From Dickeya solani IPO 2222 (GTDB lineage Bacteria; Pseudomonadota; Gammaproteobacteria; Enterobacterales; Enterobacteriaceae), in assembly GCF_001644705.1 (NCBI RefSeq), contig NZ_CP015137.1, positions 4,020,001 through 4,052,000 on the forward strand: DNA of 32,000 bases, read 5' to 3'. The notes below the pieces were generated by a model. It did not search any database. It was not told the origin of the DNA and saw nothing but the letters and a program-made list of their open reading frames with translations. Positions 10,748-29,225 of the stretch are shown in pieces (the stretch's first letter is position 1; the number at the start of each line of letters is the position of its first letter). Both the position numbers and the translations under genes were made by a program.

Positions 10748-10766
10748 AAATTTTCTTAAACGAACA

Positions 10767-11984
10767 CTATGGAGCGACTGAGACAGTGGATGCCTGTTGA
10801 TGCTCAGGTTTCCCGGCGGGCATTCCGGCGACAACCTGATTACCGATGGCATACACGGCGCACCCGGCGGCGCCTGGGCGCTGCTGGCAGTTTTTAAGTG
10901 CCTGTTTAGCGGCTTCCCGCATAGTTCGCATACCGTATGCCGCGCCCCAGTTACCCTTCGAGTCAGTCGCAAACGCTTTCTCGTAACGCTGACTGACGTC
11001 GTAATAGCTGAAATTCTCACGTCCGGCGGCATTCAGGTGGGCAGGATATGGCAGATGCGTTTCGGGAAGCGCGACAATTTCTTTGAACGGAAGATGCTGC
11101 TGCTCCAGAAACCCGGCTACTTGCTGCCACCAGAAACTTTCCGGTGCACTTTCTATAAACGTGTGCCCGTTTTCTTCGAAAGCAGGCATCAGAATGAATT
11201 CTGCGTTGCCTCCACCACGTTGATACGCATTCAACATCTCTCTGGCCATGTCAGGGGGAAAGAGATGGTCATTCTGGGTGTAAAGCCAGAGCGTAGGAAT
11301 ACGTGCCGCCCGTCCGTACAATTCGAACGCCTTTAATAGCCCTGCTTTATCACAAAATGATTTTCCATCAATCGCGCCTCTTCCCCCGTCAAAACTAATA
11401 ATAGCCTGTACACCTGCCGGATTCACCGCGCTGGTCGCTATGACAGCAAACCCTCCCGCAGACATTCCGGTAAGGATTGCCTTGTCTTGTGATGCCCAGG
11501 GCTGGCGACGGATCGCAGCAAGCGCAGCCGTGATATTATTTTTATCTATTGTTCCTGCTCGCATGTGCCGGGGCTCATTGCAGGAACTCCCTTCACCCTC
11601 CGTCGTTCCGCTTGATTGCCCGTATCCTTGGCGAAGAACGGTGACAGCAGCGTAGCCGTGCCGTGCAAACGCAATAGCTGCAGACGAGAACTGGGTTGGC
11701 GTTGCCATCATGCGGTTAAATACTGGGGAAGAGCTGCCATTTGTTATCAGCACTACGGGCAGTCGACCGGTACTGACGGGACGGGTAACGAATGCATCCA
11801 GCGTTGCTGGTTGACCGTTATCCAGCGTCACTTGCAGTGAAAGGGGTTCCCTTATCAGGCCGGCAAGTTGTTGCCGACTGTCCGATGAAGCGGCTGTCGG
11901 CGCGGCATTTGTCGACGCTGTGAAAACAAGAAAAATGAAAGATAGCGATATTATTCTGAGACAAGCCATGAAGATCTGTTGCAT
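10767..11984 (-). CDS. Exported dienelactone-hydrolase-like alpha/beta hydrolase with an extra Cys-containing C-terminal module
   Basis: Signal peptide (MACLRIISLSFIFLVFTASTNA/AP) and nucleophile elbow GMSAGG. The C-terminal ~90 aa (..KGNWGAAYGMRTMREAAKQALKNCQQRPGAAGCAVYAIGNQVV) resembles, from memory, the DUF4189 type of secreted-protein module. Confidence 0.8.
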   Translation of the reverse strand: MQQIFMACLRIISLSFIFLVFTASTNAAPTAASSDSRQQLAGLIREPLSLQVTLDNGQPATLDAFVTRPVSTGRLPVVLITNGSSSPVFNRMMATPTQFSSAAIAFARHGYAAVTVLRQGYGQSSGTTEGEGSSCNEPRHMRAGTIDKNNITAALAAIRRQPWASQDKAILTGMSAGGFAVIATSAVNPAGVQAIISFDGGRGAIDGKSFCDKAGLLKAFELYGRAARIPTLWLYTQNDHLFPPDMAREMLNAYQRGGGNAEFILMPAFEENGHTFIESAPESFWWQQVAGFLEQQHLPFKEIVALPETHLPYPAHLNAAGRENFSYYDVSQRYEKAFATDSKGNWGAAYGMRTMREAAKQALKNCQQRPGAAGCAVYAIGNQVVAGMPAGKPEHQQASTVSVAP

Positions 11985-12385
11985 CAGTGCTAATCCTTAT
12001 TGGTGAATGTGTAGTGTACAAGTGTTCAAAAAAAAGACTTTTGTGGCTGACTAGTGTTACTAACATAACGAAATGCATCAGGTGCTTAGATACGGCTTCG
12101 TTGAAGTCTGTTGATGATCTCCATGTTCAGATCGCTCGACACAAAAACGAATTTATTGAACGATAAAGTCATAATCGAAAAAGATAAAATCTATTACGCC
12201 AGAATTGGTACCTGCCGATATATCATTTTATAATTGAATTAGGTTTTCGCCTGAGTGATTACTTTTAACGGTGGAGATTGTTGCTAATTATTACCCTCGA
12301 AAAGAAATGCATTCAGGGGGAATTTATGAATGTGGCCTCATCTCTAAAAAATTGAAAAGATACCTATGAATTACAGCACTGAGGG

Positions 12386-12673
12386 TCATCCTCTGTGTGC
12401 ATGGCGATGATGAGCAGGATTGCATTCTTGATTCGTTCCTGGCAGATAATATTTTCCATCGGAAGAGGGCGTTGTTCCTCCAGGGCAACCGTTCATGCCG
12501 GGTTTCCCATTTTTACCGCCCGGAAGTCCAGCCCCTCCGGCCTGACTAACAGAAACCAACAAAGTGCCTTTTGTTTCACCTCTATTTTGGCTGACGATAT
12601 CGTCGTGAGCAGCATAGGTCATAGAGGAAAATCCGCAGGTAACTAAATAAATAAAAACCATTGTTTTATTCAT
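12386..12673 (-). CDS. Small exported Gly/Pro-rich hypothetical protein
   Basis: A 95-aa ORF with a clear signal peptide (MNKTMVFIYLVTCGFSSMTYA/AH) followed by GGAGLPGGKNGKPGMNGCPGG. I recognise no homolog. Confidence 0.5.
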   Translation of the reverse strand: MNKTMVFIYLVTCGFSSMTYAAHDDIVSQNRGETKGTLLVSVSQAGGAGLPGGKNGKPGMNGCPGGTTPSSDGKYYLPGTNQECNPAHHRHAHRG

Positions 12674-13069
12674 ATCCTACCTTTTACGTTTTCGACGTCA
12701 TCGACGGATAGTTATTAAGTCTAGCTACAGTTCAATAATTTTCATCTCTCTTCACTGACAAGTGATTCTTGGATCGTCATCTTTCTTTCACATTATTTTA
12801 CTATCAGGTACCTGAGTATAAGATGAATCACTGCCGTGCTGCTGATAAGCATCTGAACATAGAGTCGGGCAGATATCATTACATTCATTATTTCAAAATA
12901 TTATCTTTATTGACAAATAACCTACAAGCACAACCTTCTGACTATCGCCATGAAAATCTGGAGTACCTTATTTAATATAATAGAATAGAGGGAATGATAA
13001 AATAAAATTATCATTCCCGGTGCGAACGTTAGCATATTTAATTAATGAAATATCAATTTAGTACCTAAT

Positions 13070-13442
13070 GTCTTGGGGCACCAGGTAAGTGTCAAGATAG
13101 TTGGCACCTCCCGGTTGATTAGGCAGCTCACTTTTCTCGTTCTGGATCCAGCATTACCGCGCCTTCCGGTTGCCAGTTTCTTATTTTTCCCGACCAACGT
13201 GCTGGCCGTTCTGTTTTTACCTTTCTGTACGCTTCATTGTTACGCCCCCATTGGTCATTAGCATTTTTGATGGGTGGTAACAACTATCCTGACAGAGGGG
13301 CTTTTCAGTTGATACGATATTTAAGATATCATAGACGTCAACTGCCCGGATTAACCAACAGGTACAGACCTTGGGAATCTGAAAATTTGAAGGGCTTTGC
13401 AGATGGTTTTAAGTTGCGGATTTTTGAGTCGTTAAGAGACAT
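13070..13442 (-). pseudogene. P4-type (DUF4102-containing) tyrosine integrase, degraded N-terminal remnant
   Basis: The minus strand from ATG 13442 reads MSLNDSKIRNLKPSAKPFKFSDSQGLYLLVNPGS*, which is the hallmark N-terminus of P4-like island integrases. After the stop, similarity continues in another frame (..YRIN*KAPLSG*LLPPIKNANDQW..) with further stops. No catalytic domain follows. The left limit is approximate. Confidence 0.75.
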
Positions 13443-13560
13443 TTGGGGGTCACTCCGTCATCGAACCAGCCTGACTCCAAATCTGACCACCAAATTCTCC
13501 CGATGCAGAGGGAAACTGAAAATGCATCGGGAAGGGTTTTCACACTATCATGTTAGATAT

Positions 13561-13597
13561 AAAAGCAAAAAGCAGATGCCTTTCGACATCTGCTTTT
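13561..13597 (-). terminator. Rho-independent terminator immediately 3' of the tRNA-Asn-derived repeat (probably the native tRNA terminator)
   Basis: AGCAGATG (13571-13578) pairs with CATCTGCT (13587-13594) around an 8-nt loop. On the minus strand it is followed by TTTTTGCTTTT, and a T-run also follows on the plus strand. Confidence 0.7.
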
Positions 13598-13604
13598 CTG
13601 AATC

Positions 13605-13620
13605 TGGCTCCTCTGACTGG
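13605..13620 (-). repeat. 16-nt copy of the 3' end of tRNA-Asn (att-type direct repeat marking the distal ICE boundary)
   Basis: The minus strand reads CCAGTCAGAGGAGCCA, identical to the last 16 nt of enterobacterial tRNA-Asn (...GGTTCGAGTCCAGTCAGAGGAGCCA) as I remember it. The adjacent 60 nt do not encode the rest of a tRNA, so this is a repeat and not a gene. Confidence 0.75.
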
Positions 13621-14123
13621 GATCGCCTTTGCCAATAATTGGCTAATAAGTAAGCTAAATCAGAATCCACTTCCTGTCAAGACCACCAGAATGACCACCA
13701 TTTGATTGAATGTCGAATGAGATCTAATTATCTTAACAAGGTAACCCTTTGATTTATGGATTGGGAATTCCGAAAAACAAAGAGGGTGTTTTAATAAAAA
13801 CTTGATAAATAATGGTTTTTTTTGATTTCACAAAGAGATCTTAGGTAAATACTTCACTAAACGAGCATTTTATTGATAGCAACTATTTGAAATAGTTTGG
13901 GGCTTAGAAACAGCGGAGGCTCTCTGTGTAACACAAGATACCCGCCAGATGAACAGCTATTGTTTTTAATTGCATGTTTTTTAAATGATTTTCTCGCCAT
14001 GTGACATCCTCAGGTTCGATCATAAAGTTTGGTCTAAATGATTTTCTTGAGTAGAATAAGAAGAACTATTCTTGTCAACTTTATGTCATTGAATAACAAT
14101 TAGTTAGGTTGTGTATGTGACGA

Positions 14124-15200
14124 ATGGATACTAAATTGATTGCAATAGATTTCTTTTGTGGATGTGGGGGAGCTAGCGAAGGGCTACGTCAGGCCGGTTT
14201 TGACATTGTTCTTGGCATTGATGTAGATCAGCAGGCCTCAGAAACATACAAAGCTAACTTCCCTGATGCTGATTTCATCTTCGATGATATCAGAAATGTA
14301 ACTGTTGAAAGGGTTGCGAACTCTATAGCATTCAAAAGTGCAGATGGTTTGCTTTTAAGTGCCTGCGCCCCTTGCCAGCCTTTCTCACAGCAAAACAAAT
14401 ATAAAAACAAAGATGATGAAAGGATTTGTCTACTAGACGAAACTCACCGCTTCGTTTCAAGACTTTTACCAGAATATATTTTATTAGAAAATGTTCCAGG
14501 TATACAGAAAATTGATGGCAGTAAAGAAAGTCCTTTCACAAGATTTATTTCTTTGCTTGATAAGCTAAACTATCACTATGTGTATTTTGTGGCAAATGCT
14601 GAAAAATATGGCGTACCGCAAAGAAGAAAACGGTTTGTTCTTCTGGCCAGTCTGCTAGGACCAATATCAATACCAGAGCCAACTCATGATATAGAAAATT
14701 CACCTGTAAAAACAGTTAGAGAATTTATTGGTGAATATCCAAAACTTGCATCGGGAGAAGTCGATAAAAATGATGAACTACATCGTTCGGCGATCCTAAC
14801 TGAGTTGAATTTAGAGAGAATAAAAAATACCCCAGAAGGAGGGGATCGCAGGGACTGGCCGACCAATTTAATCAACACTTGTCACAAAGATTATACTGGC
14901 CATACAGATACCTATGGCAGAATGTCATGGGATAAACCTGCTCCGACTTTGACAACAAAGTGCAATAGTTATTCGAATGGACGCTTTGGTCACCCAGATA
15001 TAACACAAAATCGAGCTATAAGTATTAGAGAAGCTTCTCGACTACAAACATTTCCAAAAAAATATATATTTAAAGGTTCTTTTAATTCGATGGCGAAACA
15101 AATTGGAAATGCTGTCCCTTGTGAGTTAGCTCGACAATTTGGTCTGCACTTCATTGAGCATAATGAGGCTTCAAAGAGAGATAATCATGGCAAATTTTAA
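14124..15200 (+). CDS. DNA (cytosine-5)-methyltransferase
   Basis: All key C5-MTase motifs are present in order: I FFCGCGGASEG, IV SACAPCQPFS (catalytic Cys), VI LLENVPG, VIII QRRKRFVLLAS, and X GNAVP. A variable target-recognition region lies between VIII and X. Confidence 0.93.
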   Translation: MDTKLIAIDFFCGCGGASEGLRQAGFDIVLGIDVDQQASETYKANFPDADFIFDDIRNVTVERVANSIAFKSADGLLLSACAPCQPFSQQNKYKNKDDERICLLDETHRFVSRLLPEYILLENVPGIQKIDGSKESPFTRFISLLDKLNYHYVYFVANAEKYGVPQRRKRFVLLASLLGPISIPEPTHDIENSPVKTVREFIGEYPKLASGEVDKNDELHRSAILTELNLERIKNTPEGGDRRDWPTNLINTCHKDYTGHTDTYGRMSWDKPAPTLTTKCNSYSNGRFGHPDITQNRAISIREASRLQTFPKKYIFKGSFNSMAKQIGNAVPCELARQFGLHFIEHNEASKRDNHGKF

Positions 15201-18162
15201 GACAAGAGCTAGAACCTTAGACTTATTAGGCCGACAACAGATTGCGGGCATCCCTACGGCCATAAATGAGCTATTAAAAAATGCTCATGATGCTTATGCT
15301 GATCATGTTGATATAGATTATTTCCGTAGGAAAAGCCTTTTTATTATCAGAGATGATGGCGTAGGTATGTCAAGAACTGACTTTGAAAATAGATGGCTTA
15401 CATTAGGTACTGAGTCGAAAGTTCAACATACAAACGCATCTCTTCCCCCAGTAGATGAATCTAAAAAATTTAGACATCAGATGGGGGAGAAAGGTATAGG
15501 TCGCCTCGCTATAGCCTCAATAGGTAAACAGGTATTAATAATAACCAAGGCTAAAAACACTAATGAGATAACGGCTGCATTTATTAATTGGCAAATATTT
15601 GAACTTCCTGGGTTGAATTTAGATGATATCGTTGTTCCGACCAAAACATTTAAACAAATTCCAGATGTCGATCAAGTAAACTCTATGAAGTCTGAGTTGC
15701 TAGATTCAGTCGATATTTTATTCAGTAAAGATTCTTTAAGTGAAAAAAAATACTTAGAAATAAAAGAAACTATAACATCCTTTTCTATTTGCCCAAAAAC
15801 GCTGAGCAAAAAATTAATTCGGTTTAGCTCCTTTGATAGTAATGATTCAGGAGGTACGATCTTTATCATTTCTCCCGTTGATGAAATTCTGAATTCAGAT
15901 ATCGATGGTGATGGTAATGATAAAGAGGCTACAAAAATAGAAAAAATGTTGATGGGTTTTCATAATACAATGACGATATGTCATCCTGAACCTTTGTTAG
16001 ATATCGTATTCAGAGATTATAGAAGTAATGATGATACTTATATTGATATTATTGACAAAGAGCACTTTTTCACTAGTGAGGATTTTGAACAAGCAGATCA
16101 TCATTTTCATGGGTTTTTTGACGAATATGGGCAGTTTAAAGGTAACATAAGAATTTATCATGATAAAAACTTTGAACATATAGTCAATTGGACTGGGAAT
16201 AACCTAAATCTTACCAGTTGTGGTCCATTTGAAATAAACCTTGCTTATGTTCAGGGTGATAGAAAACATTCAATAATGGCTAATGAAGATTATGCCCGAG
16301 TTACATCCAAATCAGATAAATTTGGTGGTTTATATATTTATAAAGATAATATTAGAATTTTACCTTATGGTGATTCTGATTATGATTATCTGGAAATTGA
16401 AAAAAGACGATCTAAACATGCTGGTTCTGCTTTCTTTTCGTATAGGAGGATGTTTGGAGTTATAAGTCTTTCGCAAAATGAAAATTTTAGATTAAAAGAA
16501 AAAGCTGGGCGTGAAGGGTTTATTGAAGATCAAGCATACAAACATCTCAGAGATATTCTTAAGAACTTCTTTATCCAACTGGCTGCTGATTTTTTCCGAG
16601 ATGATATAAAAGCGGGCCCAAAAGCAGAAATTTGGGCGACAAAAAGAAATGAGTTAGTGTCTTCTCACAAAGCATTAGAGAAACGAGAAAAGCAAGCTAA
16701 GCTAAAAAAAGCTAAATTTGAATCTGCTCTTAGCTATTTCTTTGAACATCATTCAAATGGATTAATTGAACAAGATATAAATAATATTCTGACAGAAAGT
16801 GAGCATAAATTTCACAGCGTATACTCAATTAAGGACCCTGACATAGCTAGTCAGAAAATAATTGATGTTGAATCTCAGACTAGAGAAGAGATTAATGCAT
16901 ATAAACGCTCTATTATTGTTCCCACCCCTAGGGGATTTTTAATTAGAGGAGAGCTGAAAGAAGATTATAATACATATCTAACGACCTTGCAGGAGTTAGA
17001 GAGTACATGTTTTCAGCCAGCCATCGACAAAATAGATCAATTGGTTGATAAAGCAATTAATGATTATCAAATAAAAATAAGCAAACGTAAGCGTCTAGAA
17101 CAGGCGGTTGATTTTATTTCTATTGAAGCTAGAAAAGTTAACGCTGAAAAAAGAAAAAGCACGGAACAAGTTGTTCTGGATATAAACAAAAGAGTTAAAG
17201 AGTTAACATCAGATTTAATGATTGATCTTGATAATCAAATTCGCATTGTAAAAGACAAATTTAAACACATATCTATAGAAAGTGAATCTGATATTGACTT
17301 GGTCGCTAAACGAAATGAATTAGCAGCAGAAATTACTAATGTTAGCGAAAGGAATACAAGCATTTTAGATACTATAATCAGACAACTAGAGGGGGTTTAC
17401 TGGGAGAAAGATGAAGATAATAATTATATAACCAGTGAACAAATAACCGAAGTGCTTGGTGAAGAAGTTGATGCTTTGAGAGAAAAAATTCATGCTGATG
17501 TTGAGTTGAGTCAGCTTGGTTTAGCTGTAAGTATCATTCATCATGAATTCAATAGTACTGTTAGATCGATAAGAACTAGTCTTAAAGATTTGAAGGCCTG
17601 GAGCGATGTCAATGAAGATCTTGAAGGTGTCTATAAAAACATTAAGATTAACTTCGAACATTTAGACGGTTATCTCAATCTCTTTACCCCGTTAAATAGA
17701 AGATTACAGAGGAAAAGAGAAGAAATTAAACTTCTTGAAATCAAATCATTCTTAATCGATTTGTTTAAAAATAGAATGGATAGGCATAATATATCATTCA
17801 AACATACAAATGGATATTCAAAGGGGAAACTTTATGGTTTCCGTTCATCCTTTTATCCAGTTTTCGTAAACGTAATCGATAATGCAATATATTGGCTCAA
17901 TGAAAGTAATAGTAGCGACAAAACTATAAGATTACACGCCGATGATAACGGCAATGTCTATATATCTAATAATGGACCTATCGTCGATCATCGTGATAAA
18001 GACAGAATATTTAGCCTAGGCTTTTCAAGAAAATATAATGGTCGAGGAATGGGGTTGCATATCAGCAATGAAGTTCTGGAATCTATAGGTTATAAATTGA
18101 CGCTAGATGAACCAAGAGAGGGTTCAACTGTTACATTTAAAATTTCCATGGTGGAAAAATAA
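15187..18162 (+). CDS. 991-aa dual-module ATPase: N-terminal MORC/Hsp90/MutL-like GHKL ATPase, a K/E-rich helical linker, and a C-terminal histidine-kinase-like module
   Basis: N-terminal Bergerat motifs: E28-x3-N32-x2-D35 (NELLKNAHDA), D56-x-G58-x-G60 (DDGVGM) and G100-EK-G103-I-G105 (GEKGIGRL). The C-terminal part has an H-box-like IIH785-H786-EFNSTVRSI, an N-box VNVIDNAIYW, a degenerate G1 (ISNNGP) and a G2 box G952-R-G-M-G-L. ATG 15187 follows GAGAG and overlaps the MTase stop by 14 nt. The ORF-track start at 15139 is less likely. Confidence 0.85.
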   Translation: MANFKTRARTLDLLGRQQIAGIPTAINELLKNAHDAYADHVDIDYFRRKSLFIIRDDGVGMSRTDFENRWLTLGTESKVQHTNASLPPVDESKKFRHQMGEKGIGRLAIASIGKQVLIITKAKNTNEITAAFINWQIFELPGLNLDDIVVPTKTFKQIPDVDQVNSMKSELLDSVDILFSKDSLSEKKYLEIKETITSFSICPKTLSKKLIRFSSFDSNDSGGTIFIISPVDEILNSDIDGDGNDKEATKIEKMLMGFHNTMTICHPEPLLDIVFRDYRSNDDTYIDIIDKEHFFTSEDFEQADHHFHGFFDEYGQFKGNIRIYHDKNFEHIVNWTGNNLNLTSCGPFEINLAYVQGDRKHSIMANEDYARVTSKSDKFGGLYIYKDNIRILPYGDSDYDYLEIEKRRSKHAGSAFFSYRRMFGVISLSQNENFRLKEKAGREGFIEDQAYKHLRDILKNFFIQLAADFFRDDIKAGPKAEIWATKRNELVSSHKALEKREKQAKLKKAKFESALSYFFEHHSNGLIEQDINNILTESEHKFHSVYSIKDPDIASQKIIDVESQTREEINAYKRSIIVPTPRGFLIRGELKEDYNTYLTTLQELESTCFQPAIDKIDQLVDKAINDYQIKISKRKRLEQAVDFISIEARKVNAEKRKSTEQVVLDINKRVKELTSDLMIDLDNQIRIVKDKFKHISIESESDIDLVAKRNELAAEITNVSERNTSILDTIIRQLEGVYWEKDEDNNYITSEQITEVLGEEVDALREKIHADVELSQLGLAVSIIHHEFNSTVRSIRTSLKDLKAWSDVNEDLEGVYKNIKINFEHLDGYLNLFTPLNRRLQRKREEIKLLEIKSFLIDLFKNRMDRHNISFKHTNGYSKGKLYGFRSSFYPVFVNVIDNAIYWLNESNSSDKTIRLHADDNGNVYISNNGPIVDHRDKDRIFSLGFSRKYNGRGMGLHISNEVLESIGYKLTLDEPREGSTVTFKISMVEK

Positions 18163-18163
18163 A

Positions 18164-19813
18164 ATGAAAACATTCAATGAATTTTCAACAGCAGTTACAG
18201 ATCATTTTATTCAGAATGTTATCTTCATTGATGATAAAGCATATAATAAAAATGGTCCAAAAGATCAGCACGAATTTGATGCACAAGAAGTCACAAAAAT
18301 ATTTTCTAAGAAGGGAAAAATTTGTGCTGTCTATAAGCCTCAGTTAGTTAGTGATCTAGAATACTTAACTTCAATTGCGAACAAGTCTGATGTAACAATA
18401 CTTGATTGGCAAATAGTGCTTGATGAGGAACCAGCTGAAGGTGGTTCACAAAATGATGAGGAAGATGCTGAGGAGGATGATGTAAGAGGTGTGTACACGA
18501 AGAAAATTATCACATCTCTTCTTGGTGATATTGATAATCAACACTGTATAAAATTGATCCTCATTTATACTGGTGAGGTCGATCTCCCTAAAATTGCATC
18601 AGAAATTAATTCGGCATTGACTGAAAAGAACATTTCTGGTTTCAGTATTAATCAAGATGATCCATGCACTGTTATGTCTAACAATTGTAAAATCATGGTC
18701 ATATCAAAAGCGAATGGAGGAGTCGGCCGAGCCCAACATTTACCACAATTGGCTAATAAAACAAAAAGTTATGAAGAATTACCTGATTTCATATCATTAC
18801 AATTTACGGAAATGACAAGTGGGTTATTGTCTAATTTCGCAATGGAATCTCTTGCAGAAATTAGAAAGAACTTTCATCATATTTTGACTCTCTTTTCTAA
18901 GGAGTTAGATGCAGCTTATTTAGCACATCAAACTTTGTTACCTAACACTTTTGATGCAAATGAACTGTTAGTCCAGCTGTTGAGCGATACCTTTTCATCA
19001 ATTATTAGATACAAGAATCTAAATCAATTTTTAAATGAGGACAAAGTTAAATTATGGCTTGATCATAATATTGAAGATGGAGTAAAACCATTCTATAAGG
19101 ACGATGGTACTCAAGACAATGTTTTTTACCAAAGAAACGCGGATATATTATTGAGATTATTACGTTCTGATTCTGATGTTAATAACAAATTTACTAGTTC
19201 TTTAATTAGCAGTGATGGGCAACAACTATCAACAAAAAAAATCGGTATTCTAATAAAAAAATATGCCACAACCTTGTTTGCAGAATTTGATAAGACAGAG
19301 GAAATTAATAAAAATTTTGCAAAGTTATGCTACCACCGAAGTGCAATTTTTTCGCCTCACCACCTCCCATTTTTATCACTAGGTACGGTTGTTAAAAGTA
19401 CTCTCGATAATGGGGGTTACTATATTTGCATTCAACAAAGATGTGATTCCGTCAGAATTCAAGAGGGAGAGATGCGTCGTTTTCTTTTTATTTCATTAGA
19501 AGAGGTTAATGATGGTGGTTTTAACTTTTTAACCCCTAATGGTATTAAACTTAAAATTGATAAGTCTACATATTCTCTACGAACAGTTAAGTTCTCGGGA
19601 ACTAATGGTTTCGCTCTTGCAACAAAATGTGAAATTGATAGCAAAAAATATTTTGAACCATCTTATTACTCCAAGGGAAAAGAACATTCCGAGAGGTTTG
19701 AGTTTATTATTGAGCTGAAAGAACTATACGCTCAGCGCATAGTTGAGGAATATAGCTCAAGTCTATCTCGTGTAGGTTTAGATGAACCTGAATGGGTTAG
19801 ACGGTTGAACTAG
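18164..19813 (+). CDS. 549-aa protein: receiver (REC)-like N-terminal domain plus an unassigned C-terminal domain
   Basis: ATG 18164 lies 1 nt after the upstream stop. Alternating beta/alpha propensity carries REC-like landmark residues in the canonical order: VIFID23-D24, DVTILD81W, LILIYT136G and MVISK182. An acidic insert (EEPAEGGSQNDEEDAEEDD) follows D81. I recognise no motif in the C-terminal ~350 aa. Confidence 0.8.
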   Translation: MKTFNEFSTAVTDHFIQNVIFIDDKAYNKNGPKDQHEFDAQEVTKIFSKKGKICAVYKPQLVSDLEYLTSIANKSDVTILDWQIVLDEEPAEGGSQNDEEDAEEDDVRGVYTKKIITSLLGDIDNQHCIKLILIYTGEVDLPKIASEINSALTEKNISGFSINQDDPCTVMSNNCKIMVISKANGGVGRAQHLPQLANKTKSYEELPDFISLQFTEMTSGLLSNFAMESLAEIRKNFHHILTLFSKELDAAYLAHQTLLPNTFDANELLVQLLSDTFSSIIRYKNLNQFLNEDKVKLWLDHNIEDGVKPFYKDDGTQDNVFYQRNADILLRLLRSDSDVNNKFTSSLISSDGQQLSTKKIGILIKKYATTLFAEFDKTEEINKNFAKLCYHRSAIFSPHHLPFLSLGTVVKSTLDNGGYYICIQQRCDSVRIQEGEMRRFLFISLEEVNDGGFNFLTPNGIKLKIDKSTYSLRTVKFSGTNGFALATKCEIDSKKYFEPSYYSKGKEHSERFEFIIELKELYAQRIVEEYSSSLSRVGLDEPEWVRRLN

Positions 19814-19889: not shown

Positions 19890-20173
19890 TATTATTTTCA
19901 TATATTATTATTTTTGGCGAAAAATATGTTTCTGGCATAAGGTGATTAAGAAACATTCTGGTTTAATCCATAGCTGTTATTATGACTATGACTATATGAA
20001 AAACAGTATTTAATAGAATATACATCATTGTTTATGAAATTTATTTTCTCTTTGTGGACTTTTCTCTCCCAGTGTGACTGGAAGAGTTAAGTAGAAATCA
20101 AAAAATTAAAATATTGGCCATGTTATCTTAACGTAAAAAGGACCACTTACTTTTAGTCCTGATAAACATAAGG

Positions 20174-20932
20174 TCAATCTTTATCTTCAATCTTTCCCAT
20201 GATTGCACTGATAAATGCGGTGTGCGGTTGCATATTTAATTCTGATGACATTAAATCCGCCATACGATCAATCAATCCATCATGAGTCGGATGTTTGAAT
20301 GGAAAGATGTCGCCATCTTGGAAAAATTTCCCAGCAGCTATACGCTTAATGGTAGCCGTATCGACCGCTTCGATATCTTTACTTAAAATCCTTAATTTCT
20401 CTGCATCAGGTATATCTACAACATCAATGTATCCATCAGGTAATCCAAGCGCTCTGGTTACATCATCCCAATTATATCCTAAGGAAGTTTTTCCTTCGAT
20501 TGTAAAAGCTTGGGCTGGGAAAGACGCGAATGGGAAGGCTTCTTGGCATTTCAATAATAAAGTTGCTAATTTCATTAATTGCTCTGAATAGCATTCACGA
20601 ATATCCCTTTCTTTCAGTTCAGGGGGAACTTTTTGTGATTAACCAACAAAACGATATGTACATAAAGCATTTGGCAGAAACCCGCCAAAATAAGATACAG
20701 GTCCCTCTTTTTGCGTTAAATTTCTTAATTCCACAAAAAAATGCATACTCAGATCAGATTTCATTTCTGATTGTTGAAGTCCATACCACGTTGAAAACCC
20801 ATCTACCCCTGACATAGCCTTTTGGAGGACAAACGTCACACTACGGCTAGCAGAAAGAAAAGCATTTAGTACAAACTGGAATTCTAAACCATCTAAGTTT
20901 ATTGAACGCTTAAAGAAATATTCCGCTTCCAT
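20174..20932 (-). pseudogene. Hypothetical ~252-codon gene interrupted by a single in-frame TAA
   Basis: ORFs 20639..20932 and 20174..20575 are in the same frame. The only interruption is TAA at 20639-20641 (..TYRFVG*SQKVPPELKERDIRECYSEQLMKLATLL..). The region is AT-rich like the neighbouring operon. I recognise no homolog. Confidence 0.55.
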
Positions 20933-21322
20933 AAGCTTTTCAACAGGATGACGTAAACTCGTGAAAATATGTGCTATTTTGTATCTCTACGATCTGAAGG
21001 TAATAATAAGATATATGACATATGAATATTTTATCATAGCTCATTACAAAAACAGAGTTCACATTATTACGTAGTAAGTAATTGAAACCCAATTTCACCA
21101 CTGCAAAGTAAGGGGCGCTACATCCCGTTATGCAGGGTCAGTTTTTTCTCCCACGTGCTTTCCGTTCCTCGTATCTCTTCCGGTTAATCGTTTCCCAACA
21201 CAACCCGTCTCGCAAGGGTAAATGGCACGCATTCTGCGCCCTTGCGCGCCGGAACGATGCCGGGAAAGCGAACCGTCAGGCGATACGAAGACGAAAATCA
21301 CACCACTGACGGAGAAAAAACC

Positions 21323-22267
21323 ATGACGATTTCCCTGCATACCCAGACTAGCGCCCCTAACACCGCAGCGGCGACCAGCGTATCCCCGCTGGACCCGTCA
21401 GGCTCCTCAAAAACGAAATTTTCCAAAACCAAAACCGATATCTACCAGACTGTCACCGACAGCATCATCACCGCGTTGGAGGCCGGCGTGAAGCCCTGGA
21501 CGTGTCCGTGGCAGCGTGTGCCGGGCATGTCCGGTTTACCTTCCAACTTCGCAACCGGCATCGCGTATAGCGGAATGAATATCATGCTGTTGTGGTGCAG
21601 TGCATCAGAGCAGGGCTTCGGTGATTCACGCTGGATGACCTACAAACAGGCGCAGGCAGTAGGCGGGCAGGTTCGCAAAGGCGAGCACGGCACGACCGCC
21701 ATTTTTTATACAACCCTGGAAAAAGAAAACGAAGACGGCGAAGTCGACCAGATCCCGATGCTGAAAACGTTCACCGTGTTCAATGTTGAACAAATTGACG
21801 GCCTTCCCCTGAATACCGAAGCTGTCAGCCCCGCTGAGACGTTCGAGCCGTTACCACAGGCTGAAAACCTGTTGCGCCGCAGTGGTGCCCGCATCGTAGA
21901 GAAAGGTCAAAATGCCTTCTTCAAACCGTCAACTGATGAAATCTGGTTGCCGGAGCGCCATCTTTTTTCCGATGCCGCTAATTTCTACGCTACCGGTCTG
22001 CATGAACTGGTTCACTGGAGCGGAGCAAAAACACGTCTTAACCGTGTAATGAAAGGGAAGTTTGGTAGTGAAGGTTACGCCTTTGAAGAGTTGATCGCTG
22101 AGTTGGGAAGCGCGTTCTTGATGGCGGATCTGGGGATCGTTGGCGAGGTTCAGCATGAAAGCTATATCGCTTCCTGGCTGAAAGCATTGAAGAACGACAA
22201 GCGCTATATTTTCAAAGCGGCCAGTGCAGCATCGAAAGCGCACCGTTATCTAATGGATAAGGTTTGA
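21323..22267 (+). CDS. ardC: ArdC-type antirestriction protein (N-terminal ssDNA-binding domain plus C-terminal zincin metalloprotease)
   Basis: N-terminal ArdC/DUF1738 pattern (VKPWTCPW...PSNFATGIAYSGMNIMLLW...RWMTYKQAQAVGGQVRKGEHGTTAIFY). C-terminal HExxH (LHELVHWSG) with FGSEGYAFEELIAELGSAFL. ATG 21323 lies 8 nt after GGAG. The ORF-track start at 21242 is a TTG. Confidence 0.88.
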   Translation: MTISLHTQTSAPNTAAATSVSPLDPSGSSKTKFSKTKTDIYQTVTDSIITALEAGVKPWTCPWQRVPGMSGLPSNFATGIAYSGMNIMLLWCSASEQGFGDSRWMTYKQAQAVGGQVRKGEHGTTAIFYTTLEKENEDGEVDQIPMLKTFTVFNVEQIDGLPLNTEAVSPAETFEPLPQAENLLRRSGARIVEKGQNAFFKPSTDEIWLPERHLFSDAANFYATGLHELVHWSGAKTRLNRVMKGKFGSEGYAFEELIAELGSAFLMADLGIVGEVQHESYIASWLKALKNDKRYIFKAASAASKAHRYLMDKV

Positions 22268-22587: not shown

Positions 22588-22824
22588 ATGACCGCGAAAC
22601 AACGCAACACGCAAAGCGTGACCATGACGGTGGAGCGTGCCTTACTGGTCCGGGCGCGTGAAGCGGGCATTAACCTGAGTGCCATCCTGACAACCGCCCT
22701 GGATGCAGAGCTTCGCCACCATGAAGCAAAAAAATGGCAGGAAGAGAACAGGGAAGCCATCGACGCATTAAACCGTTTTCATGATGAAAATGGCTGTTTC
22801 AGTGATGAATACAGGACGTTTTAA
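22588..22824 (+). CDS. ccdA: CcdA-family antitoxin
   Basis: A 78-aa protein. The C-terminal half (..AELRHHEAKKWQEENREAIDALNRFHDENGCFSDEYRTF) parallels F-plasmid CcdA (..RRLRAERWQAENQEGMAEVARFIEMNGSFADENRDW) from memory. It sits directly upstream of ccdB. Confidence 0.88.
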   Translation: MTAKQRNTQSVTMTVERALLVRAREAGINLSAILTTALDAELRHHEAKKWQEENREAIDALNRFHDENGCFSDEYRTF

Positions 22825-22826
22825 CC

Positions 22827-23141
22827 ATGCAATTCACCGTATACGGTAATACCGGGAAAAGCGCTGTTTACCCGCTGTTGCTCGATGTCACAAGCGATAT
22901 TATTGGGCAGTTGAATCGCCGGATAGTGATCCCGTTGCTCCCTGTTGAAAAGTATCCGGCAGGCCGCCGACCAGATCGTCTTGTCCCCGTCGTCAGGCTG
23001 ACGGACGGCAAAGAGTACGCCGTAATGACGCACGAGCTGGCAAGTATCCCTGTGCAGGCACTGGGGGCGGTGTTTTGTGATGCGTCTCAGTATCGTACTC
23101 AGGTAAAGGCCGCAATAGATTTCCTCATCGACGGCATTTAG
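22827..23141 (+). CDS. ccdB: CcdB-family gyrase-poisoning toxin
   Basis: MQFTVY....LLLDVTSDII....RRIVIPLL........P.V......Y.VMTHELASIPV..LG......IDFLIDGI is collinear with F-plasmid CcdB (MQFKVY..LFVDVQSDIID..RRMVIPL...MTTDMASVPV...INLMFWGI) from memory. The protein is 104 aa and starts 2 nt after ccdA. Confidence 0.9.
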   Translation: MQFTVYGNTGKSAVYPLLLDVTSDIIGQLNRRIVIPLLPVEKYPAGRRPDRLVPVVRLTDGKEYAVMTHELASIPVQALGAVFCDASQYRTQVKAAIDFLIDGI

Positions 23142-23570: not shown

Positions 23571-24881
23571 TCACCAATTTATCCTGAGTGATTCCCATAC
23601 ACTATCAATCAGTGTTTTTGGTACTCCCTCATCTTCAGCATATTCTCGCCAGCCAGACACAATTTTTATGGTTTCATTAATAATGTTTTTCGCTTTACTT
23701 GGGCGAAGGCTGGTTATCTGGGTTGCGACGGAAAGAAGGTCATTGATCTGAAAATTATCTCGTTTTCCAGCTAACGTAAGTTGATGAGCATTAACCCATG
23801 GAGAATCGGCCTTGTAACTCCATGCTACATCGAACGCAGGGGCTAGTGTCCACTTATATTCATCGTTAACCATGAACGACCAGTTCTTAGTATGATCATC
23901 ATGATTGCGCGCAACGACATTGAATACCATGCGACGATATATTTGTTCTTGCTCTTTATTGGACAATCCTAACTGCCGACACACTGCGAGTAGCTCCTCA
24001 TAGCTGAAGGCACCAGGCTTCCTGAAATCAGCATGAGCTATACCGCACAAACTTAGAACATGGTATTTCTGGTTATTAACTCGGTCAAAACGCCTCGTCA
24101 TAAAATGAGCTCTATCGGAGTTCCTCTCGCGTAATAATTCGCACTCTGACATTACAATACCCGCATCCCTAGCCATAAGGTAATACACGTATTCCATTAC
24201 ACCATACCCTTTAGGGTCACCGAACGTCTCCTTATCCGATTTATGCTCTTGTACTCCATCAAACTTGAGAAGGTAATGCTCAAAACCATCAGGGGCGTCA
24301 ACCTGCCCAGAACGTATCTCTGATCTGTCAGCATTAACGGCCACAACAGCTTTCGCCCTTGCCCCGCCGGCAGAAGTACCTATCTGAAGCAACTTAGCCA
24401 TGGATGATTCTTCATAATCATTAAGCTGAAGTTTATCTCGAGAATCTAAGACTTTCTGAGCCATTGTTACAAGCTCACCGATTAAAATTGGTTGGCTATC
24501 AACTTCCTGGTTGTTGTTAGTCGGCTGATATTCAAGCGCACCCATTCCGCGTGATCCAGTATAGAGCAAACGATCCAACGCTAAAAATTGTGATTTATCC
24601 TGACCGCTCCTTGCTAACCAAGCATTGATTAATGAGTTACCGAAATCGTCAGGCAGTGAATCGGCAAAAACTGCAGGCAATCCCTTATACGTCTCGAAAG
24701 CCAGAGCAGAGAAAGTAAACGTTTGATTACTTAATGGTAAATAGATTGGCGAAAGACTAAACCCTTCAGACTGCCATTCTTCCGTATATTCGAAAGTAGC
24801 AAAACCGCTATCATCGAGATATGCCAAATACCCAACTGGAATACTATCAAAGAGAACGTTGCAAGCTCTAGTTATCATCAT
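23571..24881 (-). CDS. hipA: HipA-family Ser/Thr kinase toxin
   Basis: Full-length at 436 aa. N-terminal HipA coupling domain (GYLAY..., LPDDFGN), and catalytic region NHDDHTKNWSF followed by LAPAFDV. The 4-nt overlap (ATGA) with the upstream HTH gene is as in hipBA. Confidence 0.92.
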   Translation of the reverse strand: MMITRACNVLFDSIPVGYLAYLDDSGFATFEYTEEWQSEGFSLSPIYLPLSNQTFTFSALAFETYKGLPAVFADSLPDDFGNSLINAWLARSGQDKSQFLALDRLLYTGSRGMGALEYQPTNNNQEVDSQPILIGELVTMAQKVLDSRDKLQLNDYEESSMAKLLQIGTSAGGARAKAVVAVNADRSEIRSGQVDAPDGFEHYLLKFDGVQEHKSDKETFGDPKGYGVMEYVYYLMARDAGIVMSECELLRERNSDRAHFMTRRFDRVNNQKYHVLSLCGIAHADFRKPGAFSYEELLAVCRQLGLSNKEQEQIYRRMVFNVVARNHDDHTKNWSFMVNDEYKWTLAPAFDVAWSYKADSPWVNAHQLTLAGKRDNFQINDLLSVATQITSLRPSKAKNIINETIKIVSGWREYAEDEGVPKTLIDSVWESLRINW

Positions 24882-25285
24882 TCAACCTTAAATTTTTTCC
24901 GGTTCGCGAGCATGGCTCTAACACCATTCTGAGAAAATGTTTTTGCATTTGAAGAATTTGTTACTCGGTAATGTGCATTACCGGCAACTCCGCTGCTATG
25001 TCGAACCTTTCTTTTTGAATTGTACGCGATAATGTCTGACGGTCGCATTGTTGGCTCAGGCACTAAGGCATCAAGCCCCTCAAGCAAATTTAGCTGTCGA
25101 AGCACCGCTATAAAGGTGCTGAAGCTACACGTTCCTTTTTCTAGCCTTGCATATGTCGGCCTGCTTATGCCGAGACTATCCACCAGTGCCTCCTGTGAAA
25201 TGCCCCTGGCTTGTCGATATACTTCAAGCCGTCTAAACAACTCTTTATTGATGGCAAAATCAGTCATTGTTTTGGTTATTTTCAT
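24878..25285 (-). CDS. hipB: HipB-like XRE-family antitoxin/repressor with a long C-terminal extension
   Basis: HTH segment (LEVYRQARGISQEALVDSLGISRPTYARLEKG) directly upstream of hipA and coupled to it. It is 135 aa from ATG 25285, which is preceded by GGGGGT. The C-terminal ~60 aa have no obvious counterpart in the 88-aa E. coli HipB. Confidence 0.85.
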   Translation of the reverse strand: MKITKTMTDFAINKELFRRLEVYRQARGISQEALVDSLGISRPTYARLEKGTCSFSTFIAVLRQLNLLEGLDALVPEPTMRPSDIIAYNSKRKVRHSSGVAGNAHYRVTNSSNAKTFSQNGVRAMLANRKKFKVE

Positions 25286-25297
25286 AGGTACCCCCAA

Positions 25298-26422: not shown

Positions 26423-28147
26423 CTAAAAATCGATCTGAGGCACATTTTCTTCTTCGCTGAAATCCAGCGCTCGTTTTACCGGTGCCGCTGATGCAGCGAT
26501 ATCAGGCGAAACGGTGAACGTTTCCAGCTCACGTTTTTGCACTTTGATGGGGGAAATCAGCGAGGCGGAGGGAAGTGTTTTCGTGGTGAAGATAAAACTG
26601 ACGAAATCAGGCAGGTTCAGGATCATATTGCTGTCTATAAAGAAACGCTCGGCCTGTCTGATAGTACGTTCACCGTCGATGGTTTCCGTCAGTACGGCAT
26701 CAGTTTTGGCTTTGCGGATTTCATCATCCACTAAGATGGTGCCAGACATTCTCGCTACCCATTCCGCTGTATCCGGGTCCATAACGCGGTATGCCAGCTT
26801 GAATTTAGCGTTTTCAACGACTGCACCGACAACTGCATCGCCTTTTAAATCCGCTGGGCAGTCTTTTAAATCGGCAATGGACTGATGGGCCATGATGATA
26901 TGTACGCCTTTATCCCGTGCTGCGCCTAACCCCTCCAGTGCTGGTTTTGATAAGTGGTATTTCAGTTCGTCGAGAAAGATGGCTATGGGGCGGGGCGTTT
27001 CTTTTACCCGGTCGCGCCTTTCTGCTAATTGGTAAAGTCGTACCAGCAGCATTCGCTGGGCGGTGATAATCTTGCTATTGCGCATTGAGCCGATGACATA
27101 GCAGCAGCCACCTTCATCAAAAACCGATTGGAGTGAAAATCCTGTCGGCGCGTTGATGGCATTGAGCAACGCCAGCTCTTCAATCTTGCCGAAAAAGGCT
27201 TTGATATCCTCCGCGATACCTTGAACATATTCGCCGTTATAAATATCGCGGATAGTCGAAGAGGGATGACTGCTGACAAATTGTGCCGCCATACGTGCCG
27301 CTTTTCGGTCGTCGATACGATAAAAATCGGATTCCTGACCTTTTTCCGCCAAGCTGAATCCCGCAACAAACAATTCTTCTAGTTCGTCAGGCGTAATATT
27401 TTCAATCAGATTTAGTTGGTATTGCGGTTTTCGCAGGTCAATTAAGGCAAAGGGTTTGCCTGCATCCTCGCAGGCCTTGCGATAAAGATGTGTCGCCCAT
27501 TCATCATCCTTTGGGTCCATAATAAATACCCCTTCACCCGCCAGGATGCTTTGATAAAGCAATATCCCGGCGGCCACCCCTTTTCCAGCCCCGGTGGTGC
27601 CGATAATATCCGCATGTTGTCTTTGCCAGTCTTTTAACGGGAGATACATCGGCTGTTGCTCTCTGTCCATCCCGATAAAAATACCCTTATTTAGGTTGAT
27701 ATAATCCAGCGGATTATAATGCAGCGTTTCCGGCAGTAGGGATTTTACCGTGCGTACATCGGTGCGTAATTCCCGTTCAAGACTGGTCTTTTTGATGAGT
27801 TGTTTTTTTATTTTATCCACTTCAGGCGTTAATACTCGGCGCAGACTAATATGGAGAATAAGCCCTGCCACGGTAAATGTAATTAATATTGACCAGTCCA
27901 GAATGGGAATGCGGGTAAGTATCCGATCGTTATAAAGCCACCTAAAAACGCTAATAAGTAAGGGGCCCACTGTGCTAAACAGGAAACACAGCAGGGAAAA
28001 AGTGATAATCAGCTTTTTCCATAATGGGGCTTTCTGCCGATCATCGCTTTTCATTGAAGCGAAAAACGGCAGGGTCAGGCCCGATAATAGCGCCATCATC
28101 AATTGATGCTGTTGCATAACATCAATAAAGGCCAGAGCACCATTCAC
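26423..28147 (-). CDS. Type IV coupling protein (VirD4/TraD/TraG family; MobB in ICEKp/ICEEc1 nomenclature)
   Basis: Two N-terminal TM helices, Walker A GTTGAGKGV and Walker B IFLDELKY. The 574-aa protein has the acidic C-terminal tail (DFSEEENVPQIDF) typical of TraD-like proteins. The start is a GTG at 28147, and ATG 28117 is an alternative. Confidence 0.9.
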   Translation of the reverse strand: MNGALAFIDVMQQHQLMMALLSGLTLPFFASMKSDDRQKAPLWKKLIITFSLLCFLFSTVGPLLISVFRWLYNDRILTRIPILDWSILITFTVAGLILHISLRRVLTPEVDKIKKQLIKKTSLERELRTDVRTVKSLLPETLHYNPLDYINLNKGIFIGMDREQQPMYLPLKDWQRQHADIIGTTGAGKGVAAGILLYQSILAGEGVFIMDPKDDEWATHLYRKACEDAGKPFALIDLRKPQYQLNLIENITPDELEELFVAGFSLAEKGQESDFYRIDDRKAARMAAQFVSSHPSSTIRDIYNGEYVQGIAEDIKAFFGKIEELALLNAINAPTGFSLQSVFDEGGCCYVIGSMRNSKIITAQRMLLVRLYQLAERRDRVKETPRPIAIFLDELKYHLSKPALEGLGAARDKGVHIIMAHQSIADLKDCPADLKGDAVVGAVVENAKFKLAYRVMDPDTAEWVARMSGTILVDDEIRKAKTDAVLTETIDGERTIRQAERFFIDSNMILNLPDFVSFIFTTKTLPSASLISPIKVQKRELETFTVSPDIAASAAPVKRALDFSEEENVPQIDF

Positions 28148-28207
28148 TATCGGCGACAGTGAAACGGCAAGCTTATTTTAAATCATGATGCCTCCTTCGT
28201 CAGAGAC

Positions 28208-28280
28208 TCGCCCCAACGCATCGCCCCATCAATTCGCCCCACGGTGTTGGGCGAAAAGGCGGGGCGAACGTCTGGGGCGA
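28208..28280. repeat. Six 8-bp sites at exact 13-bp phasing: three TCGCCCCA followed by three inverted (T)GGGGCGA
   Basis: TCGCCCCA at 28208, 28221 and 28234. Inverted copies are TTGGGCGA at 28247, CGGGGCGA at 28260 and TGGGGCGA at 28273. The array lies 60-130 bp upstream of the coupling-protein start. Confidence 0.85.
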
Positions 28281-28843: not shown

Positions 28844-28882
28844 CCTGAAAACCGTCACGCCTTTGCGCCCGGTTCGTCAGTA

Positions 28883-29185: not shown

Positions 29186-29225
29186 ATCGAATACCTTTAT
29201 TGGGTGGCAGGGGGCAATGGTTCGT

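Follow-up and report, generated by a model that had tools for sequence, protein, structure and literature searches.

A receiver protein with a fused two-lobed module as the putative phosphorylation-controlled output of a methylase-kinase cassette in Dickeya solani IPO 2222

We analyzed in silico a 32,000-nucleotide stretch of the Dickeya solani IPO 2222 genome (contig NZ_CP015137.1, positions 4,020,001 to 4,052,000; referred to as the window), which contains a three-gene cassette composed of a C5 DNA methylase gene (gene 1), a gene for a GHKL ATPase with a histidine-kinase core (gene 2), and a gene for a receiver protein (gene 3). With moderate confidence, we regard gene 3 as the response-regulator partner of gene 2 and as the phosphorylation-controlled output, probably the effector, of a mobile cassette that resembles restriction-modification systems and that probably polices foreign DNA. 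The receiver domain itself and its linkage to kinase and methylase genes are already published and represented in Pfam, and their detection here is a rediscovery. New are the apparently fixed fusion of the receiver to a C-terminal module, the predicted two-lobed structure of this module, its lack of a fold match, its conserved residues, the apparent autonomy of the cassette, and the exchange of its methylase. The remaining interest therefore lies in the function of the C-terminal module, which seems to be obligately fused and has no recognizable relative.

RESULTS

The N-Terminal Part of Gene 3 Is a Response_reg_2 Receiver

Translation of gene 3 from position 18164 yields 549 codons followed by a stop codon. 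The longest in-frame open reading frame (ORF) starts at position 18107 and comprises 568 amino acids, but the ATG at position 18164 is the better start since it lies 1 nt past the TAA stop codon of gene 2, follows the sequence GGTGGA at a distance of about 9 nt, agrees with the N-termini of the homologs, and gives the 549-amino-acid form annotated by NCBI. The NCBI label of the protein in Klebsiella, Citrobacter, Cronobacter, Serratia, E. coli, and Dickeya is "response regulator receiver domain".

Residues 15-185 match the Pfam family PF19192 (Response_reg_2) with an E-value of 1.5e-35 and 123.4 bits (cutoff 27), well above what chance would give, and cover positions 1-178 of the 180 positions of the model. 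The initial annotation had proposed a CheY-like receiver from the segments VIFIDD (D23, D24), VTILDW (D81), LILIYTG (T136), and IMVISK (K182). All of these landmarks are present as described, and an AlphaFold2 model of the full-length protein (mean predicted local distance difference test score, pLDDT, 82.8; predicted template modeling score 0.79) places them at the C-terminal ends of strands b1, b3, b4, and b5. The modeled order of elements (b1 18-22, a1 40-49, b2 53-57, a2 64-74, b3 77-80, a3 110-121, b4 130-136, a4 141-154, b5 175-182) is that of a (beta/alpha)5 fold, and an insert that had been noted ahead of K182 appears in it as an extra strand at residues 169-171.

To assess conservation, we used a sample of 107 homologs, 53 of them closer (37-88% identity) and 54 divergent (25-45% identity). 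D23, D24, D81, T136, and K182 are all invariant in the closer set. Among the 54 divergent proteins, D23 and D81 are present in every sequence and D24 in 52; residue 136 is Thr in 48 and Ser in 6, and residue 182 is Lys in 53 and Arg in one. The five residues, whose conservation had been suggested as a check on the receiver assignment, are thus invariant or near-invariant over the entire sample. The canonical receiver model PF00072 did not match the gene 3 protein at E <= 1; it matches three of the 54 divergent family members, with E-values of 0.07 or weaker. When the full model was compared with the PDB by Foldseek, only weak receiver- or flavodoxin-like matches were returned (RcsB, EvgA, and 3hdv; probability <=0.99, E >= 0.012). 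With its PF19192 match, its complete set of catalytic residues, and the modeled order of its strands and helices, the N-terminal region of about 190 amino acids is a CheY-like Response_reg_2 receiver with a complete and conserved phospho-acceptor pocket, and the initial assignment is borne out.

A Pectobacterium protein was the starting point for the definition of Response_reg_2 (PF19192) and of the partner family HEF_HK (PF19191) (Bellieny-Rabelo, Pretorius and Moleleki, 2021; PMC8011034). That study described the conserved residues (an acidic pair, the phospho-acceptor Asp, a Thr, and a Lys), noted that loop extensions are tolerated, and found 91.6% of the family linked to a GHKL/histidine-kinase-like gene, with C5 DNA methylases dominating upstream; it arrived at a two-component reading as well (PMC8011034).

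A poly-acidic insert directly after the predicted phospho-acceptor, likewise reported in the initial annotation, occurs within the loop that joins b3 to a3. It spans residues 86-107 (LDEEPAEGGSQNDEEDAEEDDV) and contains 12 Asp or Glu residues and neither Lys nor Arg; the pLDDT drops below 50 at residues 94-101. This character is kept in the close subfamily, in which the loop has a median length of 25 amino acids and 12 acidic residues, while the loop of distant members varies from 6 to 76 amino acids with 0-20 acidic residues. Because length and acidity vary so widely, the loop cannot be essential to the mechanism of the family. Judged by this variation, it is a decoration of the subfamily beside the active site and not a core or family-wide element, and the idea that it acts as a DNA mimic or autoinhibitor is weakened accordingly.

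The Receiver Appears to Be Obligately Fused to a Two-Lobed Module

When the C-terminal region of about 350 amino acids was modeled alone, the prediction was again confident (pLDDT 82.3) and showed two lobes. The helical one (residues ~200-400) includes a hairpin at 306-324, and the beta-rich one (residues 408-518) is followed by helices at 520-548. Over the 107 sequences, D249, G407, C422, C427, and G538 are invariant, R431 and R536 are substituted once each, and H255, Q424, D428, R438, (D/E)517, K/R519, E543, W544, and R546 are near-invariant. The motif in the beta-rich lobe reads CIQQ(R/K)CDSVR, and the tail reads LSRVGLDExEWxRR.

A profile of residues 196-549 detected 1,563 representative proteins (50%-identity clusters, E <= 1e-3) from several phyla. 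The module is C-terminal in the 150 matches listed, nearly all full-length ones of which (~480-610 amino acids) possess ~180-250 residues N-terminal to it. Furthermore, PF19192 was found in each of the 54 divergent members scanned, and no other Pfam family occurred in more than three of them, the one present in three being PF00072. Since the module is C-terminal in the matches listed and PF19192 accompanies it in all 54 divergent members, the fusion of receiver and module appears to be obligate.

The C-terminal region had no match in Pfam, NCBIfam, PADLOC, or PHROGs, the last of which returned nothing meaningful for gene 3. Its sequence profile found no relative in the PDB at E <= 10, and no match with E <= 0.001 emerged when its model was compared with the PDB and BFVD by Foldseek. 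These results agree with the earlier view that the C-terminal 350 amino acids are unlike the usual outputs of response regulators, as no signature of helix-turn-helix (HTH), nuclease, TIR, SIR2, or protease type was seen in them and no known fold matched significantly.

Several candidate relationships of the module were rejected. The top Foldseek match, to RhoGEF DH/PH domains, was dropped in view of its template modeling (TM) score of 0.14. For the beta-rich lobe, the best-superposing PDB matches are MazF/CcdB-type toxins (TM 0.55-0.64, probability 0.82-0.85, E 0.5-0.65), with 6kyt_E at their head (TM 0.64 when normalized to the target, root mean square deviation 4.6 A, probability 0.85, E 0.65). 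The superposition is acceptable, but with these E-values, sequence identities of 7-9%, and an hhalign probability of 0.1 against E. coli MazF, we did not assign the module to MazF-like toxins and treat the modeled resemblance as a lead only, not as membership. A PD-(D/E)xK nuclease was rejected because no such family was detected in the 54 members and no restriction-enzyme fold was among the PDB matches listed. The conserved (D/E)-L-(K/R) triplet at residues 517-519 has Arg in place of Lys in 7 of the 54 members, and the beta-rich lobe consists mostly of strands without an intervening helix, compared with the alpha-beta-beta-beta-alpha-beta core of PD-(D/E)xK enzymes. We also set aside a winged helix, for which the sole resemblance is a helix-plus-hairpin pattern within the least conserved segment, and a relationship to the MrcB_N/HNH-type proteins encoded near some cassettes (hhalign probability 0.9%).

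The helical and beta-rich lobes have median isoelectric points of about 6 and 7, respectively, and are thus not basic. Ratios of non-synonymous to synonymous divergence (dN/dS) are mostly 0.04-0.4 in each domain of gene 3, and all of these domains are under purifying selection. The least conserved part comprises residues 301-400 (window positions 19064-19363), which are 52-73% identical between cassettes whose kinases are 94-100% identical. Here, synonymous divergence (dS) is uneven between otherwise near-identical alleles, a pattern that points to recombination mosaics in a relaxed segment; diversifying selection was rejected, as dN/dS is 0.06-0.39 and the uneven dS speaks for recombination instead.

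Gene 3 Is Part of a Translationally Coupled Operon With a Histidine Kinase and a C5 Methylase

In a survey of one genome per species, we collected 76 cassette loci, of which 67 were complete enough to judge; 63 loci were non-redundant. In the window, gene 2 starts inside the end of gene 1, with an overlap of 14 nt, and gene 3 follows gene 2 at the 1-nt distance noted above; the three genes are translationally coupled. The G+C content of the cassette is 32-39%, and that of the genome about 50%. In the methylase, the catalytic motifs P83-C84 and E122-N123-V124 are invariant over the 63 cassettes.

The gene 2 protein contains the Pfam domains HATPase_c_3 (residues 24-136), HEF_HK (PF19191; residues 776-842, E 7e-29), and HATPase_c (residues 890-987). 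H786, E787, and F788 of its HEF_HK domain are conserved in 63 of the 63 non-redundant cassettes, and so are the N-box and G-box of the kinase and GHKL motifs I-III. In a sequence search of the PDB, residues 749-988 align with solved histidine kinases (e.g., 3a0r). About 640 residues after HATPase_c_3 are devoid of a Pfam domain and gave only sub-threshold matches (e.g., BAR); the distal part of this stretch is probably a coiled coil. No nuclease domain was found in gene 2 or gene 3 by Pfam, NCBIfam, PADLOC, the PDB sequence search, or Foldseek, the middle third of gene 2 not having been modeled.

The Cassette Is Conserved Across Phyla

The order methylase-kinase-receiver on a single strand is kept in all 67 complete loci, each of which possesses a homolog of the C5 methylase of the window, and a gene 2 homolog lies directly upstream of the receiver gene wherever the locus has enough upstream sequence. 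Hosts are Gammaproteobacteria, Bacteroidota, metagenome-assembled genomes resembling Desulfobacterota, Saccharibacteria/Patescibacteria, and others. Compared with the window proteins, most kinases are 55-70% and most receiver proteins 35-57% identical, and the methylases lie at 32-65%; the receiver protein of Pectobacterium versatile is 51% identical to that of the window. In Alteromonas and Maribacter, the cassette is a bare three-gene insertion among housekeeping genes.

We counted recurrent neighbors within 5 kb of all loci. Vsr was found in 31 loci, proteins sharing a domain with MrcB_N/HNH-type genes in 19, an AAA_15 ATPase in 13, a second C5 methylase in 12, and DUF2357 together with PD-(D/E)xK in 7. 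Since nothing recurrent besides Vsr is present in 32 of the 63 non-redundant loci, the three genes look like a self-sufficient unit.

MrcB_N/HNH-type proteins are encoded near loci L018, L042, L045, L051, L054, L056-L059, L069, L075, and others, most of them downstream and on the same strand, and some have DUF2357 and PD-(D/E)xK partners. Proteins of a type associated with methyl-dependent restriction stand beside a cassette that makes 5-methylcytosine, an apparent paradox also met in Ambrosia, a Pseudomonas anti-phage system (see Discussion). The gene 3 family occurs in none of 50,697 phage records and in one plasmid record, and a phage or plasmid origin of gene 3 was rejected on these counts.

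The Methylase Is Exchangeable and Some Copies Are Decayed

The cassettes of Neptunicella (L013) and Marinomonas (L015) have kinases that are 97% and receiver proteins that are 95% identical, while their methylases, both members of PF00145, share only 31% identity. Nucleotide homology of 94.5% (L013:4960-10632 versus L015:4555-10632) extends from 67 nt upstream of the kinase start to the end of the receiver gene, and its starting point falls inside a remnant of the 3' end of the original methylase gene. Kinase and receiver thus form a conserved module with an exchangeable methylase, yet a homolog of the C5 enzyme of the window is present in every complete locus. Co-variation of methylase and gene 3, which would have been a sign of shared sequence specificity, was rejected; the opposite is seen here, as the methylase is swapped and the receiver unchanged.

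Decayed copies were also encountered. In E. coli NN5 (L001; NZ_CP126348.1, 3986796-3994752), the methylase gene is interrupted by an IS3-family element and the receiver gene by IS903B, with the kinase gene left intact. This cassette is located beside a tRNA-Leu gene and an integrase gene and adjoins genes for an HNH endonuclease, a nuclease, an AAA ATPase, and a type I restriction-modification system. Pieces of 113, 243, 260, and 362 amino acids of the gene 3 protein are annotated in genomes of Serratia odorifera and Dickeya solani; such fragmented copies suggest recurrent inactivation of the receiver gene by frameshifts. Truncated genes are present in several of the surveyed loci. Recurrent disruption would fit a gene that is costly or toxic.

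Genomic Surroundings of the Cassette in the Window

To the left of the cassette are housekeeping genes, among them a galactonate-utilization cluster, and to its right are genes of the type found in integrative and conjugative elements, including those for ArdC-like, CcdB, and HipA proteins, an HTH antitoxin, a type IV coupling protein, and VirB11-like and TrbI-like proteins (Table 1). Given the conjugative transfer genes, the cassette appears to be located at the margin of a conjugative element that has integrated here.

Upstream of the cassette, about 2 kb of low G+C content (38-40%; positions 12000-14100) without a long ORF may represent a decayed island junction. This region holds a strong terminator-like hairpin with a 14-bp stem (13567-13598, minus strand) and a 95-codon ORF (12386-12673, minus strand) whose product has a signal-peptide-like N-terminus and a Gly/Pro-rich body. 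Further to the left, two minus-strand ORFs of 351 and 405 codons (9977-11984) overlap at positions 10767-11032 and both match alpha/beta-hydrolase families; together, they may constitute a hydrolase gene that is frameshifted or fused. Directly downstream of gene 3 and convergent with it are two small minus-strand ORFs of 133 and 97 codons (20174-20932) without a Pfam match; the product of the shorter one weakly matches phrog_19262 (E 1.7e-5), and a terminator-like hairpin (20139-20160, minus strand) follows the longer one.

Table 1. Features of the cassette and of its right-hand surroundings (positions refer to the window).
Feature	Position	Strand	Basis or remark
Gene 1: C5 DNA cytosine methyltransferase, 358 aa, first in cassette	14124..15200	+	PF00145 E 9e-60, TIGR00675 dcm
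Gene 2: soluble paraMORC-type GHKL ATPase, coiled coil, histidine-kinase core, 991 aa	15187..18162	+	Pfam
HEF_HK phospho-acceptor (DHp-like) domain of gene 2, with H786 in HHEF (785-788)	17512..17712	+	PF19191
Gene 3: Response_reg_2-family receiver and uncharacterized 350-aa module, 549 aa	18164..19813	+	translation, Pfam, homologs, model
Receiver domain, residues 15-185	18206..18718	+	PF19192, residue conservation, modeled strands
D23-D24	18230-18235	+	
D81, predicted phospho-acceptor	18404-18406	+	
Acidic b3-a3 loop, predicted disordered, residues 86-107	18419..18484	+	pLDDT, composition
T136	18569-18571	+	
K182	18707-18709	+	
Helical lobe, residues ~200-400; invariant D249, near-invariant R234 and H255; 301-400 least conserved, mosaic	18761..19363	+	models, conservation, dN/dS
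Beta-rich lobe and C-terminal helices, residues 401-549; (D/E)-L-K 517-519, tail LSRVGLDExEWxRR	19364..19810	+	models, conservation
CIQQRCDSVR motif of beta-rich lobe	19427-19456	+	
ArdC-like anti-restriction protein, zincin metallopeptidase domain	21242-22267	+	PF08401, PF18818; just downstream of cassette
78-aa ORF just upstream of CcdB gene, may be CcdA	22588-22824	+	
CcdB toxin gene	22827-23141	+	PF01845, E 1e-31
HipA-type kinase toxin (436 aa) with upstream HTH/XRE antitoxin (139 aa), 4-nt overlap	23571-25297	-	
Conjugative transfer genes: type IV coupling protein, VirB11-like ATPase, TrbI/VirB10-like protein	26423-31973	-	

DISCUSSION

A Working Model for the Cassette

We propose that the N-terminal head of gene 2, which combines GHKL and S5 parts, would sense the state of DNA, most likely DNA that lacks the 5-methylcytosine mark of the cassette, and would do so either directly or via the methylase. 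Autophosphorylation at H786 would be altered as a result, the phosphoryl group would be transferred from H786 to D81 of gene 3, and the phosphorylated receiver would turn the fused two-lobed module on or off. This module would serve as the cassette's output and, most probably, as an effector that targets nucleic acid or halts the invader or the infected cell in some other way. The module is regarded as the effector by elimination, because no other recurrent candidate is present in half of the cassettes, no nuclease signature was detected in gene 2, and the invariant residues of the module are enzyme-like.

Several considerations weigh against this proposal. Phosphotransfer, DNA sensing, and an activity of the module are all steps that we infer, and the word effector stands for a process of elimination applied to a module without detectable similarity to a nuclease or any other enzyme. 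The swap of the methylase disfavors recognition of sequence-specific unmethylated sites, in the manner of type II enzymes, by the products of genes 2 and 3 themselves; it is compatible with sensing via the methylase or with sensing of the general 5-methylcytosine status. In 16 of the 63 non-redundant loci (19 of all loci), an MrcB_N/HNH-type gene is present within 5 kb, mostly downstream, and in these loci the nuclease could be a separate protein, by analogy with Ambrosia. An effector domain could be concealed in the middle part of gene 2 (residues ~140-480), and PADLOC 2.0, which has no model for gene 2 or gene 3, gave no match to either.

A bolder form of the proposal, which we consider tentative, is that the module has a new fold and represents a new class of phosphorylation-gated effectors. 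Such effectors may depend on a metal or on cysteine, as could be read from D249/H255 and C422/C427/D428/R431. The paraMORC-histidine kinase, the exchangeable C5 methylase, and gene 3 would then make up a self-sufficient immune cassette in which a His-Asp phosphorelay, and not a direct fusion, couples recognition of DNA without the 5-methylcytosine mark to killing of the invader or the cell.

Alternative Explanations

The module could instead be a DNA-binding, transcriptional output that regulates the cassette or neighboring restriction genes, an explanation that we judge to be rather unlikely. Transcriptional control by the receiver protein AbrC was proposed by the authors of the Ambrosia study, in which expression is infection-induced (10.1101/2025.09.30.679545), the helix at residues 292-302 followed by the beta-hairpin at 306-324 recalls a recognition helix and its wing, and the MrcB_N/HNH genes of the 16 loci mentioned above might provide a nuclease to be regulated. 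However, no HTH or winged-helix family of Pfam matched any of the 54 divergent members, none was found among the 50 PDB fold matches listed, and the hairpin falls into the least conserved part of the gene 3 protein. The lobes are not basic, there is nothing else that could be regulated in half of the cassettes, and the cassette crosses phyla with differing promoter architectures. AbrC, moreover, is a canonical receiver of 209 amino acids without similarity to gene 3. Quite unlikely in our estimate is a different division of labor, with the effector residing either in the uncharacterized middle of gene 2 or in the methylase, which would act on invading DNA, and with the module as an adaptor that tunes the kinase, the methylase, or a phage protein by binding to it. 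Within the cassette, gene 2 shows the highest conservation (55-70% identity across phyla) and has ~340 residues without an assigned domain; the Type II restriction-enzyme model of DefenseFinder matches gene-2-like proteins (Table S1 of the Ambrosia preprint, 10.1101/2025.09.30.679545). The highly conserved but poorly ordered tail LSRVGLDExEWxRR of gene 3 resembles a docking motif, and its mosaic segment 301-400 might offer a variable surface for interactions. Set against this are the lack of a nuclease signature in gene 2 (Pfam, NCBIfam, PDB sequence search) and the invariant Cys, Asp, and Arg residues of the module, which look more like an active or metal site than like a docking surface.

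We hold it to be highly improbable that the domain is a pseudo-receiver that is never phosphorylated, with the products of genes 2 and 3 forming a static complex or one driven only by ATP hydrolysis and the kinase-like parts being structural relics. Although the domain is too diverged for PF00072 (no match for the window protein, and three of 54 members matched weakly, at E 0.07) and bears large loop insertions beside its active site, the five residues of phosphoryl chemistry are conserved across the 107 sequences. The H-box His and the ATP-binding motifs of the kinase are found in 63 of 63 cassettes, and relics would not stay so conserved. Furthermore, the D60A substitution in the receiver of Ambrosia ends defense (10.1101/2025.09.30.679545).

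If our proposal of a phosphorylation-controlled output is correct, the cassette represents a kind of restriction-modification-like immunity that is widespread and has yet to be validated, in which a histidine-aspartate phosphorelay stands between the sensing of DNA and an effector whose domain is new to structural databases. Ambrosia, the one validated relative, would be extended to a minimal architecture with a fused output, and the three-gene cassettes of Klebsiella, E. coli, and Dickeya would offer a tractable system for studying what bacterial MORC-like ATPases sense.

Comparison With Known Systems

Gene 3 is a member of the Response_reg_2/HEF_HK pairs, with which it shares the DD, D, T, and K residues of the receiver, the loop expansions, the gene with HATPase_c_3, HEF_HK, and HATPase_c domains, and the upstream DNA_methylase gene (PMC8011034). 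The founder of the family stems from the related genus Pectobacterium; the ~350 amino acids past the receiver are unmentioned in that study, which does not give a function experimentally (PMC8011034).

The validated anti-phage system Ambrosia of Pseudomonas (AbrR-AbrA-AbrB-AbrC-AbrD) is composed of an XRE regulator, an N6 methylase, the HATPase/kinase-like protein AbrB, the receiver AbrC, and an HNH nuclease, and its defense is lost when the GHKL Asn or the receiver Asp (D60A) is mutated (bioRxiv 10.1101/2025.09.30.679545). It has in common with the cassette a methylase, a kinase-like protein with HATPase_c_3 and HATPase_c, and a receiver protein; a fragment of AbrB aligns with residues 334-447 of gene 2 (E 9e-10, 26% identity), and the AbrB gene cluster includes carriers of HEF_HK (10.1101/2025.09.30.679545). 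In contrast to gene 3, AbrC is a PF00072 receiver without the 350-amino-acid module; homology between the two was rejected, as BLASTP gave an E-value of 1.6 and hhalign a probability of 0.1, and they are unrelated beyond the fold. The methylase of Ambrosia is an N6-adenine enzyme, whereas that of the cassette is a C5 enzyme. Ambrosia also requires a separate HNH nuclease and an XRE regulator, and genes for both are absent from the operon (14124-19813); the nearest XRE-type gene in the window is that of the HTH antitoxin beside HipA (24878-25297). A HATPase-REC system, which may or may not be the gene 3 family, is among the DefensePredictor predictions awaiting validation.

As modeled, the beta-rich lobe of gene 3 resembles the MazF/CcdB-type SH3-like barrel toxins in being a small beta barrel with a helix at its C-terminal side, a resemblance that serves as a lead only. 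Enzymatic outputs are known from response regulators such as CheB, PleD/WspR, and RpfG. In PorX (REC-PglZ, cited in PMC9757075), a receiver governs a fused output that does not bind DNA, the same logic as that proposed for gene 3. The output module of gene 3 is unrelated, both in sequence and in predicted fold, to the outputs of PorX, CheB, PleD/WspR, and RpfG.

With regard to type II restriction-modification systems, a methylase is present, and in gene 2 only the N-terminal GHKL part resembles BbrUII/HgiDII; NCBIfam NF050001, a restriction-enzyme family of that name, matches residues 9-127 of gene 2 with an E-value of 1.7e-20. The N-terminal GHKL ATPases of paraMORC3, represented by the type I-D Shedu protein VcSduA, and of the BbrUII/HgiDII family belong to the same broad radiation as that of gene 2. 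ParaMORCs are linked to methylases and restriction-modification genes, and VcSduA/paraMORC3, in which a GHKL head is fused to a nuclease, is a validated defense protein. Whereas these GHKL-headed nucleases have the nuclease directly on the ATPase, the cassette has a histidine-kinase core in this position and its presumed output on a separate receiver protein, and a phosphorelay step would thereby be inserted between the two.

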